Shown here: positions 54,209-57,949 of the stretch, piece by piece
Layout of the letters: each line of letters opens with the position of its first letter
Numbering within the stretch: position 1 is the stretch's first letter
DNA from: Thermoplasmatota archaeon
Lineage (GTDB): Archaea; Thermoplasmatota; Penumbrarchaeia; Penumbrarchaeales; Penumbrarchaeaceae
DNA length: 64,000 bases
Direction: 5' to 3'
Assembly (NCBI GenBank): GCA_029762535.1
Contig: JARVGK010000001.1
Location: 32,368-96,367, forward strand
Notes under the pieces: model-generated
The model's database searches: none
What the model saw: only the letters and a program-made list of their open reading frames with translations
What the model was told of the DNA's origin: nothing
Translations under genes and position numbers: made by a program

Positions 54209-57200
54209 TCACTGCTCTTCCACCAGGAACTCCGCACCACATCCAGGGCACGTCCTGCTTCCGACCGGAACCTCGATGGAGCATTTGGGGCATTGATATA
54301 TCTCGGATTCGAAGGATGCTCCGCATCCAGGACAGGTCGCCGCGTTCATCTCCACGGCATTACCGCACGCCTCGCAGAGGAATGTCCTCCCATCGGTGCT
54401 ACCTTCGCCTTCCACCTTCTTTACCGAGCCCATCGCCCTCTCTAGAGCTCCTTTCAGGTCCTCATCCTCCTCTGGGTTCAGGTTCGACAGCTGTTTTATG
54501 GCCGAGTTGACCGCGTCGAGGTTCATACCTCCGTTCTCGGTAGAGGCCTTGATCAGTGTCTCGACGATCTCCCGCATCGGTACGATATCGGTATTCACCG
54601 ATGTGAGAAGCCGGTCCCTCAACGATACCTCCAGCTCCAGGCCCCTTCTTTTCAGCAGCTCTGCGAGCAAAGGTCCTTTGATATCTTCAGATAATGGCCT
54701 GATGTCCACGACCAGGCCGCTTTCCAGCCGGGATCGCAACTTTTCGGAGATGACGGTTATCTCGCCGGGCGGTCTCGATGATGTCATAACTATCTGCTTG
54801 TTGGAGTTCAGCATTAATCCGAACATATTCTCGAGGATATCTTCATCGGTCGAGCTCATGATGTCATGGACGTCATCGAGGAGGATAACATCGTATCCGT
54901 TAAGTTCATTCTTTTCAATATCATCGCCCCCCAGGACCGAATTCAGCTCTTCGATGGAAAGCAGTCCGATGCTGATGCCAGAGTCCTTGGCCAGTATGCC
55001 GGTCCGGATCGAGCTCAAGAGGTGGGTCTTGCCGGAACCGGTGTTCCCGTAGATGAAGAGAGGGTTGTATGCCTTCGACGGGTTATCGGCCACGCCTTGA
55101 GCGGCTTTCACCGCGAATCTGTTCGAGTTACCCACGATCAGATTATCGAAGGTCATCGAACCTGTCGCTTCCCATCCTTCATCGGCCCCGGATGGTTCTT
55201 CAGATGGCCCATCCTCGCTCTTGGCCTCGATCTCGGCTTTTGGCGTCTCCTGCGGCATCCGGAATCCGGTAGAGCCCATGAACTTCTTGAACATCTGTAT
55301 CTCTTTTTCGAAGTTGTTCATCTCCAGCTCGAGTATGGACATGTCCTGGTCCAGGTATTGCTTGATCTTTTCTGCTGCCTGGAATCCCGAGGATATATGA
55401 TCATCGATCCTCTTGATGATCTCGCTCCTCTTCCTCCTGTCCTCCTCTATCATCGCCTCCAGTCCTTCGAGTGCGAGGCTTATCTCATCGACGAGGCCAG
55501 GATCGTTCAGTTTGAACTCGATGTCCTCGGCCTCCTTCTTGAAATGTTTCAGATCGAGGGAATCGAACCTCTCCTGGAAGCCCTCGAGTTTGATTATCTG
55601 CTTTAGCGTCTCCTCGAATTCGGCATCAAGGTCCTCGATGGATGCATCCAATTTCTTCTCCAGGGATCTGACGTTGTAGCCCGCATCCTTCCATATCTTG
55701 ACCCTGTCCCGTATCTTTTCCCGCTTGGTGTGATTGCTCTCAATGAGGTTCTTCAGGTCCTCGAAATGCTCCAGCGCTCCCTGATGGTCCCCGATGTCCT
55801 TGAGATGCTTCTTAAGCTCCTCGATGCCCGGATGAAGCCAGCTGCTTTCGACCCTGTCCCATTTCTCGATGAGCGAGGAGGCCTCCTTCAATCGCGAGAT
55901 CCTTGTCTCCATGTCCTCTATGGCATCCTCGATGTGTGGCGCGGGTGTCTCTATGAGGTCCTTGAGGCTATCTATACGATATCCTTCCTTTTTCAGTTCC
56001 TCCAGCCTTTTCTTCAGGTCGATCCTTATAGCCGTATCCGAGCGAACCCTTTCAACGAGGTCCGCGAGGTTCTTCCTCGCCCTATCGATCTCGAAGGGGT
56101 CCTGTAATAGTGACCGAAGCTCATCCGCATCTCCCTGGAAGAATCTGGTATTGATCGATGAGAGCTCCTTGAGCATCTCCCGGCAGACGGTGATGTTCTT
56201 CTGCATCTCATCGTGAACTATGCTGAAGGCGGGGAGATCGTCATCAATGACCTCCTCCACCCTCTTCACGATGAAACCGTCGGACCTCCATCTCTCGAGA
56301 TCGTTCTTGACCTTCTCTCGGGTCTCCTCCCTCCTGCCGATGTCATCTTTCAAGCGATCCATCGAATCCTGGGCCTTATCCAACTGTGTCGGGTCTATCA
56401 GTATGGCTCTCAGCTCCTCGAATCTGCCATCCAGCCATCTGCTGTCCATACCGGATAGTTCATCGGACAGTTCAGAGAGCCTCTGCACCCTCTTTTCCAG
56501 GTCCTCCAGGGCGCCTCTCAGCTCGGATATGGGTCGCTCGAACATGGGCTCGATCGATACCACTTCATACCCTCTTCCGGCGATATCATCCACTTTCTTC
56601 CTTAACTCGTCCCTTTCCTGATCGATCCGGAGTATCCTCTCCTGTATGTCGTTCAGGCGGGATTCGTATCGATCGAGATCGAATGGATCTTTCATCGAGG
56701 CTTTCAGCTCGTCGATATCCTTGGTAAGATCGCGACGATCGGTATTATCGAGCGTTGCCCCGATCTCTTTGATCCTTGCGACATTGTTCTTCAGCAACTC
56801 CATCATTTCGCGGAGGTCCTTGGCCCTCTGGTCTATGGAATCCTCGATCCTCTTGATGCTGAAGCCGCCCTTCTCGAACGTTTTCGCTTCCTCGAGGATC
56901 TTTCGTTTCTCCGCCCTCTCCGCCTCCATCGTCTCTTTCAAGGACGCGAGGGAAGATCCCGCGGCAGGGATCTCGTTGGGATCGTTCAAAAGGAACTCTA
57001 TCTGAGCGATATTCTTGGAGAAACCCTTTGCGTCCTTTTCCTTGGAAATTGCGTCCAGCTCCTCCCTGTAATCCTTCAGCTGCTGAATGGAGTCCATGAA
57101 GTTCGCCATAGAATTCCAGGCCGAATCCAGATCATCATCGAGTTTCTGCTCCACACTCTCAGTGTTGAAGCCCTCCTCCTTCCAGAGTTTCACCCACTTG

Positions 57201-57949
57201 ATTATCTCGTTCCTCTTTTCCGTTATCTGGTCCAATGCCGTTTCTATCCGCTTGACGGCCTTCTCCATCTCCGGCATGTTGGATATGTCCTTTGAGCGTT
57301 CCTTCAGATCTTTAACCTGCTCCTGGAGATCGACCGTTGTGACGGTATCCAGCCATTTGACCATCTCCCTGGAACGAGAGATCCTGGCCGAGATGTCGTT
57401 GTAATTATCGCACATCTCCTTGTATCCGAGCTGCCTTTTTGAGTCGAGATCATCTATCACATATCCCTCCGAGATCCAATCCTCGATATCGGATATCATC
57501 TGCTTCATCCTCTTCTCCTGCTCGATGCGCTCCTTCTTCTTCTTCTTGAGATCATCCTGATGCTTTTTGTATAGCTTGATGAACTCATCGAGGTTCAGTT
57601 CATCCTCCATGCGGCATTCCTTGAAGAAGGCATAAGGCGGCCCCACATCGATCTTGGAATGGAGCTCAATCTCGGCCTCCGGTTCCATCATGACCGACAG
57701 CAGAGGAAAGGCTCCGACATCCCCCTTCTTCACTACTGTTCCGACAGTGGACTCGCAGAGCAGGGGTTTCCCTTCCTTGAACACCATCTGTCCGATCACG
57801 TTGTCCCTATTTCCCTCATCGGTCTCCAGATCCCCTTTGACGAGCAAATAGCCCGTACAAACCCCCTCGGTGATCCCGGAGATGATCTCTTTTATTTGTC
57901 CTTCCCCGCCTTTCCGGGTGTAATCGAGCGTTCCCTTCGGAAGTATCAT
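54209..57949 (-). CDS. 1246-aa protein: N-terminal globular domain, eight tandem ~100-aa coiled-coil/spectrin-like repeats, DnaA/Hda-clade AAA+ ATPase module, C-terminal double zinc ribbon
   Basis: TFDNLIVGNSNRFAVKAAQGVADNPSKAYNPLFIYGNTGSGKTHLL (DnaA box/Walker A), DVILLDDVHDI (Walker B), NKQIVMTSSRPPGEI...LRSRLESGLVVDIRPL (box VII Arg-finger region), IVPMREIVETL (sensor II-like); CEACG...CPGCG and CPKCS...CPGCG ribbons; SD AGGGGGAAGG before ATG. Confidence 0.8.
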   Translation of the reverse strand: MILPKGTLDYTRKGGEGQIKEIISGITEGVCTGYLLVKGDLETDEGNRDNVIGQMVFKEGKPLLCESTVGTVVKKGDVGAFPLLSVMMEPEAEIELHSKIDVGPPYAFFKECRMEDELNLDEFIKLYKKHQDDLKKKKKERIEQEKRMKQMISDIEDWISEGYVIDDLDSKRQLGYKEMCDNYNDISARISRSREMVKWLDTVTTVDLQEQVKDLKERSKDISNMPEMEKAVKRIETALDQITEKRNEIIKWVKLWKEEGFNTESVEQKLDDDLDSAWNSMANFMDSIQQLKDYREELDAISKEKDAKGFSKNIAQIEFLLNDPNEIPAAGSSLASLKETMEAERAEKRKILEEAKTFEKGGFSIKRIEDSIDQRAKDLREMMELLKNNVARIKEIGATLDNTDRRDLTKDIDELKASMKDPFDLDRYESRLNDIQERILRIDQERDELRKKVDDIAGRGYEVVSIEPMFERPISELRGALEDLEKRVQRLSELSDELSGMDSRWLDGRFEELRAILIDPTQLDKAQDSMDRLKDDIGRREETREKVKNDLERWRSDGFIVKRVEEVIDDDLPAFSIVHDEMQKNITVCREMLKELSSINTRFFQGDADELRSLLQDPFEIDRARKNLADLVERVRSDTAIRIDLKKRLEELKKEGYRIDSLKDLIETPAPHIEDAIEDMETRISRLKEASSLIEKWDRVESSWLHPGIEELKKHLKDIGDHQGALEHFEDLKNLIESNHTKREKIRDRVKIWKDAGYNVRSLEKKLDASIEDLDAEFEETLKQIIKLEGFQERFDSLDLKHFKKEAEDIEFKLNDPGLVDEISLALEGLEAMIEEDRRKRSEIIKRIDDHISSGFQAAEKIKQYLDQDMSILELEMNNFEKEIQMFKKFMGSTGFRMPQETPKAEIEAKSEDGPSEEPSGADEGWEATGSMTFDNLIVGNSNRFAVKAAQGVADNPSKAYNPLFIYGNTGSGKTHLLSSIRTGILAKDSGISIGLLSIEELNSVLGGDDIEKNELNGYDVILLDDVHDIMSSTDEDILENMFGLMLNSNKQIVMTSSRPPGEITVISEKLRSRLESGLVVDIRPLSEDIKGPLLAELLKRRGLELEVSLRDRLLTSVNTDIVPMREIVETLIKASTENGGMNLDAVNSAIKQLSNLNPEEDEDLKGALERAMGSVKKVEGEGSTDGRTFLCEACGNAVEMNAATCPGCGASFESEIYQCPKCSIEVPVGSRTCPGCGAEFLVEEQ
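55100..57530 (-). repeat. eight tandem ~300-bp (≈100-aa) helical repeats encoding a recurring hxxhW+xxG[FY]xVxxLE motif
   Basis: ISDIEDWISEGYVIDDLD / IIKWVKLWKEEGFNTESVEQKL / ILEEAKTFEKGGFSIKRIEDSI / LRKKVDDIAGRGYEVVSIEPMF / VKNDLERWRSDGFIVKRVEEVI / LKKRLEELKKEGYRIDSLKDLI / IRDRVKIWKDAGYNVRSLEKKL / IIKRIDDHISSGFQAAEKIKQY at ~100-aa spacing. Confidence 0.6.

Follow-up and report, generated by a model that had tools for sequence, protein, structure and literature searches.

In bacteria, domain III of the replication initiator DnaA counts as a hallmark of replication initiation. It oligomerises with itself in an ATP-dependent, head-to-tail manner by way of the arginine of box VII, and it binds single-stranded DNA (ssDNA) within the filament. 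DnaA and Orc1/Cdc6 fall in the same initiator clade of AAA+ proteins, and archaea are expected to initiate replication by Orc1/Cdc6. Here we analysed a window of 64,000 nucleotides (nt) of contig JARVGK010000001.1 from a Thermoplasmatota archaeon (assembly GCA_029762535.1; 'the window' means this whole stretch, and coordinates are counted from its first letter), in which one gene on the minus strand (54209..57949) encodes a protein of 1246 amino acids (aa) with a DnaA domain III module (DnaA-III) near its C terminus. The coding sequence is complete, including its stop codon, and runs from an alpha/beta N-terminal domain (N-domain; residues 1-115) through ~98-aa helical repeats (134-900) and a disordered linker to DnaA-III (931-1155) and a double zinc ribbon (1189-1246).

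A first-pass annotation of this gene, made from the letters of the sequence, had not recognised the architecture. Our search of full-text literature likewise found no description of the family; one survey of ESCRT proteins touches on Thermoplasmata, coiled coils and zinc ribbons but deals with different proteins. The protein itself is present in databases, with an identical sequence deposited as NCBI MDG6223951.1 (from a Candidatus Thermoplasmatota metagenome-assembled genome (MAG)) under the name 'DnaA/Hda family protein'. Its relatives are called 'ATP-binding protein' or 'hypothetical protein' and, at JGI, 'chromosomal replication initiator protein DnaA'; these database labels are automatic and generic. 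The ATPase module is known, and the architecture, its archaeal presence and the two accompanying domain families are new.

The DnaA-III module and the domains around it

The module, which includes the AAA+ lid (residues 931-1155; 54485..55159, on the minus strand like all features within the gene), was delimited by matches to Bac_DnaA, TIGR00362 and the Protein Data Bank (PDB). Pfam Bac_DnaA (PF00308) covers residues 932-1082 over profile positions 5-162 of 162 (E=2.2e-34, 119 bits against a cutoff of 23), which places the module among DnaA proteins and not in another clade, and in the PDB it is matched best by chains of DnaA domain III (8bv3, E=8e-31). TIGR00362 aligns over profile positions 61-343 of 437, that is, over domain III with its lid and without domain IV, at 151.6 bits, below the equivalog cutoff of 343.9. 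The helix-turn-helix (HTH) of domain IV (Bac_DnaA_C, PF08299) had no match in the protein at E≤1, and a linker and zinc ribbons stand in its position. Domain I (DnaA_N, PF11638) had no match in the protein either, the N terminus consisting of the unrelated alpha/beta domain and the repeats. These searches bore out the annotated view of a DnaA domain III without domains I, II and IV.

The same annotation had assigned the module to a 'DnaA/Hda clade', of which the DnaA part holds and the Hda part does not. The Hda model TIGR03420 reaches 91.9 bits, below its cutoff of 194.8, and the nearest relatives of the module outside the family are full-length bacterial DnaAs with both DnaA_N and DnaA_C (33-44% identity). 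Because these relatives are full-length DnaAs and the Hda models score lower, the module, as judged from its sequence, belongs with DnaA proper rather than with Hda.

Most catalytic elements of domain III are in place. Besides the N-terminal 'FxNFVVGxSNxxA...YNPL' box, motif alignment identified Walker A (GNTGSGKT, residues 968-975, with K974; 55025..55048), Walker B (VILLDD, residues 1021-1026, with D1025/D1026; 54872..54889), an intact sensor I (T1056, S1057) and box VII (KLRSRLESG, residues 1070-1078; 54716..54742), in which R1074 occupies the position of the DnaA arginine finger. All 12 family modules in the alignment retain Walker A, Walker B and sensor I, and 11 of the 12 retain the arginine finger. 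The head of the window protein is probably an ATP-binding, arginine-finger-competent oligomerisation module.

The head is joined to the repeats by an acidic linker (residues 901-930; 55160..55249), which is predicted to be disordered (AlphaFold2 (AF2) predicted local distance difference test (pLDDT) below 50 at residues 899-930) and is only 29% identical to that of P0002, an orthologue with 77% identity overall (P and L numbers are our identifiers for relatives and their loci). A second linker (residues 1156-1188; 54386..54484) leads from DnaA-III to the double zinc ribbon (DZR; residues 1189-1246; 54212..54385). The latter has the four CxxC pairs that had been noted from the sequence; Zn_Ribbon_1 passes its cutoff (27.9 bits against 25), the Pfam model DZR lies marginally under its own at residues 1192-1240 (25.8 against 27.3), and all eight cysteines are kept in DZR-bearing family members.

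The N-domain (57605..57949) is the defining part of the protein family. A separate domain in front of the repeats had been proposed, and residues 1-115 form a compact alpha/beta fold in an AF2 model (pLDDT 87; predicted template modelling score 0.81); in a longer model, of residues 1-930 (mean pLDDT 81.6), the domain occupies residues 8-112. Its alignment contains 32 invariant columns, and the family motifs [MK][IL]LPxG, GG, xGY, GQxVF, IExH and ID are all present in the window protein, where they lie in stretches such as MILPKGT, GG, TGYLL, GQxVFKEG and KIDVGPPxAFFKEC. A profile built from nine members found 33 matches in total among 1.84 billion representative proteins, with the window protein at E=5e-50. 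Scanning the same nine members against Pfam at E≤10 returned nothing meaningful, the profile had no match among PDB sequences below E=0.05, and fold matches were borderline only, the best from Foldseek being the PPC-type protein AF0104 (E=0.28). We take the motif pattern to recall PATAN/DUF4388, an unconfirmed lead only, with no such match in Pfam.

A long K/E/R-rich helix (AF2 residues 120-160), which starts at residues 116-133 (57551..57604), joins the N-domain to the repeats. The eight repeats counted at first sight were approximately right: there are seven full units of ~98 aa and one truncated unit of 74 aa, in register and near gap-free. They are repeat 1 (residues 134-231; 57257..57550), placed by the repeat alignment and AF2; repeat 2 (232-333; 56951..57256), which matches repeat 7 by BLAST at E=2e-13, the lowest value among pairs of units; repeat 4 (432-529; 56363..56656), which matches repeat 6 at E=2e-12; and, from the repeat alignment, repeat 3 (334-431; 56657..56950), repeat 5 (530-627; 56069..56362), repeat 6 (628-728; 55766..56068), repeat 7 (729-826; 55472..55765) and truncated repeat 8 (827-900; 55250..55471), which ends in a conserved STGF/Y motif. 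The units have the motifs W-x3-G-[YF] and D-P and are seen also in distant family members. In the AF2 model, each comprises four helices of ~37, 6, 27 and 12 residues (DSSP). The N-domain and the ~98-aa repeat are two domain families without a Pfam model.

Distribution, head loss and genomic setting

To describe the family, we compared its members across genomes. All 19 genomic loci from species-representative genomes belong to MAGs of Thermoplasmatota, Thermoplasmata or Thermoplasmatales, and the same fusion is shared by over 25 independent assemblies of Thermoplasmatota from differing studies and sequence sources, including both close and distant relatives (P0144, P0145, P0151, P0154, P0157 and P0187, among others). 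The most widespread form is that of the window protein, with N-domain, repeats, DnaA-III and DZR. Others consist of N-domain, repeats and DnaA-III (L014, P0138, P0157), of N-domain, repeats and DZR (P0008, P0009, P0152) or of N-domain and repeats only (L009-L013, L015, L017, L018, L020). A mini form, P0162 (L025 2642-4717, plus strand), has the N-domain, one repeat, a very canonical DnaA-III (Bac_DnaA E=6e-69) and a DUF835 domain. Members range from 691 to 1653 aa, with an estimated 1 to about 11 repeats.

The gene for P0162 adjoins a convergent gene of 550 aa (L025 4770-6422, minus strand), whose product has three zinc ribbons, an acidic proline-rich linker and a helical C-terminal domain.

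The DnaA-less orthologues share one slot, between an RNB nuclease gene and a convergent thiamine pyrophosphokinase (TPK) gene, and some end exactly where the module would begin. Because TPK starts 5 nt after their stop codon, these loci have no room for a DnaA module, and there is no separate DnaA gene beside them. A neighbour-joining tree built on the core region places the forms with DnaA in at least four deep clades and those without it in three. The clades of the DnaA modules mirror those of the core region, and when the tree is limited to the close family, 99/100 bootstraps set the bacterial DnaAs apart as a single clan. The simplest reading is one ancient DnaA-III fusion followed by several losses. 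The module is of bacterial type and was probably acquired by the family ancestor, and the family has been inherited vertically. At least three clades have lost the module from this same locus, so it is dispensable and unlikely to be the replication initiator.

Two candidates for stand-alone archaeal DnaA-III proteins, P0104 and P0106, were ruled out as frameshift-fragmented bacterial dnaA genes at rnpA-dnaA-dnaN-recF-gyrB loci. The short 'DnaA-III only' proteins at L027 6001-7008 and L028 6001-7220 come from bacterial dnaA genes that frameshifts have split; they lie in dnaA-dnaN origin regions, with rnpA upstream in L028, and the frameshifts are likely to be assembly indel errors.

Divergence of the module varies widely among clades. 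Median identity to bacterial DnaA domain III is 52-57% in the P0145 and P0162 clades (maximum 68%), about 49% in the L007 clade and about 31% in the window's own clade; the P0010 module has 25%. P0145 (L023 10001-14263), a protein with a canonical-type module, and P0162 exceed the TIGR00362 cutoff (371 and 358 bits, respectively) without domains I and IV. A codon-by-codon comparison of the window gene with that for P0002 (L026 10001-13744) gave ratios of non-synonymous to synonymous change (dN/dS) of 0.15 (N-domain), 0.16 (repeats), 0.20 (DnaA-III) and 0.08 (DZR). Purifying selection acts on all structured modules, and the DnaA module shows 2.4 times as much non-synonymous change as the repeats (dN 0.25 versus 0.10). 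The head of the window's lineage is strongly diverged yet still under selection. No break in GC content appears within the gene, at the repeat/DnaA junction or relative to the flanks.

In the same comparison dS was uneven, at ~0.3-0.6 in the N-domain and repeats and ~1.2-1.4 in DnaA-III, linker 2 and the DZR, a pattern that recombination in the 3' third or an effect of codon usage may explain.

The reading frame opens with ATG and contains no internal stops. This start is supported by the N-terminal MILPKGT, kept in all orthologues, and by a Shine-Dalgarno-like GGGGGAAGG read from the sequence just upstream (57952..57960). An A/T-rich, TATA-like element, GAAAAATATATA (58061..58072), lies ~110 nt upstream of the ATG, in the 132-nt gap that follows the RNB gene, and, read by eye, is a putative promoter of the gene's own. 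Two antisense ORFs of 218-246 aa within the gene (54396-55052 and 54866-55606, plus strand) probably arise because the sense strand is rich in K and E codons, the reverse complements of which lack stops.

The window gene sits in conserved chromosomal surroundings. Upstream and co-oriented lies the gene for an RNB/RNase R-like nuclease of 902 aa (58082-60790, minus strand), which also adjoins the family gene in L001, L002, L003 and L026; RNase R-type enzymes are unusual in archaea. On the other side, TPK is convergent (53546-54193, plus strand) and is followed by genes for two giant predicted surface proteins on the plus strand, one of 1978 aa with DUF7948, SBBP beta-propeller, PKD and TSP3 domains (47539-53475) and one of 1069 aa with Big_13 and PKD domains (44129-47338), both of which are syntenic with the family gene in all close relatives. 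The order RNB, family gene, TPK and giant DUF7948 protein is kept among close relatives, and TPK and a PKD protein are also near the gene in a Guaymas-type relative; at the P0145 and P0162 loci the neighbours differ from those in the window. These orthologues and their synteny confirm the chromosomal Thermoplasmatota setting that the first-pass annotation had called archaeal. Among the flanking genes it named, TPK, the RNB nuclease and Taw1 (62485-63504, plus strand) are present, the S3Ae-like ORF, KDKWKSKQWYPIVAP (23385-24164, plus strand), is ~30 kb away, and aIF-1A was not located. The window also encodes, on the plus strand, formate-tetrahydrofolate ligase (60846-62531, E=3e-245), cysteinyl-tRNA synthetase (CysRS; 42678-44132), a HisKA/HATPase_c histidine kinase (24311-25462) and a small ORF that is Gar1-like by sequence pattern only (41759-42163); on the minus strand are Cdc48 (38127-40352) and, between it and CysRS, a DnaJ-domain ORF (41015-41605).

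Possible role of the captured module

The account we prefer, with modest confidence, is of a small, chromosomal and vertically inherited family, specific to a rare group of uncultured Thermoplasmatota, in which DnaA-III was captured onto a rod and serves as part of an ATP-gated scaffold or tether, not as a sequence-specific initiator. The family ancestor would have captured domain III of a bacterial DnaA (AAA+ with lid), without the DnaB-binding domain I and the DnaA-box-binding domain IV, and the captured module would have been joined by a disordered linker to the C terminus of the rod, usually with a double zinc ribbon behind it. We infer the mechanism by analogy with domain III in bacterial DnaA: the head would bind ATP, and the arginine of box VII would contact the neighbouring protomer. 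The outcome would be ATP-dependent head-to-tail oligomerisation, possibly with nucleic-acid binding in which the zinc ribbons help. Through the rod and the N-domain, this switchable head, on its flexible linker, would be connected to another cellular partner. Because the head is dispensable in several lineages, the core function would lie in the N-domain and rod. That headless orthologues exist, that domain IV is absent and that there is no origin context all argue that the protein is not a replication initiator; the earlier suggestion of a structural or tethering protein fits the true orthologues that occupy the same locus without a DnaA module.

A bolder version of an ATP-gated scaffold or tether, which we think doubtful, is that archaea domesticated the ATP-dependent filament-forming, DNA-binding engine of DnaA as the switchable, DNA-binding end of a long spectrin-like cytoskeletal rod, that is, as a nucleoid-tethering or chromosome-organising apparatus without known counterpart. 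On this version, the P0145 and P0162 clades, whose modules are still 55-68% identical to bacterial DnaA, might even show DnaA-type strand opening in an archaeon.

Several observations weigh against a working ATP-gated scaffold or tether. The stretch DIVPMRE (residues 1121-1127; 54569..54589), which had been described as sensor-II-like, is degenerate: V1123 occupies the column of the canonical arginine, and R1126 follows at a distance of three residues. The initiator-specific motif (ISM) region, the part of DnaA that touches ssDNA, has been shortened by 5-6 residues; survival of the hydrophobic ssDNA-contact residue depends on the alignment, with HMMER pairing I190 of B. subtilis with L1002. 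Because the sensor-II arginine is off its column and the ISM is shortened, ATP hydrolysis and nucleic-acid binding may be altered or lost in the window copy. No conserved functional partner gene was found among the neighbours, which are housekeeping or surface genes and differ in distant members. When canonical-type modules were added to the tree, support for a single origin of the module fell to 51/100; the bacterial DnaA sample in this wider tree is biased towards Clostridia-like sequences. Finally, we infer the geometry of the elongated rod that the repeats would build from secondary structure only.

The changes in the head also bear on a different explanation, in which the module of the window's lineage is a catalytically dead pseudo-ATPase remnant heading for loss and the protein a passive rod. 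The canonical sensor-II arginine has been lost in the window protein, P0002 (which has no arginine at all in this stretch), L004, L016 and P0010, and a 6-residue ISM deletion is common to the window protein and P0002. The module's identity to bacterial DnaA of ~31%, its elevated dN relative to the repeats and its repeated loss in other lineages point the same way. However, the module still has the Walker A lysine, the Walker B DD, sensor I and the box VII arginine, and the dN/dS of DnaA-III is that of a sequence under purifying selection, with the downstream DZR under tighter constraint still. We regard a dead remnant as possible but unlikely.

Less probable again is a role in replication, either as a bacterial-type initiator or as an Hda-like regulator at archaeal origins, in which a DnaA-III filament would melt DNA or the head would modulate the ATPase of Orc1/Cdc6. 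DnaA-III is the origin-melting, oligomerising engine of DnaA, Orc1/Cdc6 is its relative within the initiator clade, and the modules of the P0145 and P0162 clades, which are 55-68% identical to bacterial DnaA and pass the equivalog cutoff, suggest strong constraint on DnaA-like biochemistry. Against such a role, domain I and the DnaA-box HTH are absent, the module is missing from true orthologues in at least three clades and so cannot be essential for initiation, and both sensor II and the ISM have degenerated in the window copy. Hda models also score below DnaA models, with no cutoff reached by the window protein. An Orc1/Cdc6-type P-loop was found nowhere in the 64-kb window, which has no origin-like context, and the neighbours are unrelated to replication.

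Conflict systems often contain AAA+ proteins fused to zinc ribbons and coiled coils, and the DnaA module was acquired horizontally from bacteria, so that the fusion could be part of a mobile element or defence system. We consider this very unlikely, as synteny with housekeeping genes is kept across divergent genomes, the module and core trees are congruent, the family was not found on 2.9 million viral contigs, defence-system models (PADLOC) gave only weak coiled-coil noise and there is no GC break. A chimeric assembly of an archaeal coiled-coil gene with a fragment of bacterial dnaA, a concern the first-pass annotation had raised and one to which the bacterial type of the module and the orthologues that stop exactly before it lend some colour, deserves next to no weight given that the fusion recurs with the same linker position in independent assemblies, that GC content does not break at the junction, that module clades track core clades and that purifying selection extends across the junction.

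Taken together with its stable inheritance, the finding that DnaA-III is under selection, and in some clades almost unchanged, within an archaeal scaffold protein suggests that this domain is reusable outside initiation. The canonical head, the diverged head and the absence of a head at the same locus make up a natural experiment, in which comparison could reveal what the ATPase contributes. There is also a practical side: the JGI naming as DnaA and the two members past the TIGR00362 cutoff amount to a systematic mis-annotation that could mislead origin prediction, as well as taxonomy-based checks for contamination in archaeal MAGs.

Comparison with known systems

Long helical archaeal proteins with an ATPase module include SMC, Rad50 and the archaea-specific SMC-related proteins (ASRP), and there are surface resemblances to these. 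NCBIfam models for such proteins match the repeat region weakly (E 3e-10 to 1e-6, far under their cutoffs), and JGI labels one relative a 'chromosome segregation ATPase'; the matches reflect coiled-coil composition only. The window protein lacks the ABC-type head, the hinge and the antiparallel coiled-coil architecture, and its ATPase is a DnaA-clade AAA+ module.

Rods of spectrin repeats, including bacterial EzrA, resemble the family in their tandem all-helical units of ~100 aa and in the functional module at one end. The repeats had been called spectrin-like on first inspection, and our searches did not sustain the term. A profile of the repeat unit against the PDB and Pfam gave no more than generic coiled-coil noise and weak spectrin and EzrA matches: 5 of 32 single units matched Spectrin_Anc-1_2, the spectrin repeats of nematode Anc-1 (best E=8e-4), and 2 of 32 matched EzrA, all below threshold, Pfam Spectrin had no match in the window protein, and against the PDB the profile gave dystrophin at E=0.26. 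Foldseek returned nothing at E≤0.001, with a non-significant top match to PRC1 (E=0.11), whose microtubule-binding domain has a spectrin fold. A spectrin repeat is a ~106-aa bundle of three roughly equal helices, with one helix running on from unit to unit, whereas AF2 predicts four helices per unit here, and the W-x3-G-[YF] and D-P motifs are specific to the family. 'Spectrin-like' is thus best taken as an analogy from length and all-helical nature, without the support of homology.

A further system is the DnaA paralogue Hda/HdaA, which, like the window protein, has DnaA-III without domains I and IV and whose name is part of the NCBI label. The window protein nevertheless scores 92 bits on the Hda model (cutoff 195) and 152 on the DnaA model. 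Hda is a protein of ~230 aa consisting of domain III only, as opposed to 1246 aa with added domains, and the internal position of the window module leaves no free N terminus for a sliding-clamp-binding motif. A DnaA partner for Hda-type action is not expected in archaea.

The closest described system remains DnaA itself, which the window module matches from end to end of Bac_DnaA, including Walker A and B, sensor I, the box VII arginine and the lid. Unlike DnaA, the window protein has no domains I, II and IV, its module is dispensable among orthologues, and its copy has a shortened ISM and no canonical sensor-II arginine. In the window protein the module lies C-terminal to 900 aa of archaeal N-domain and rod and is followed by a double zinc ribbon, in place of which P0162 has DUF835.

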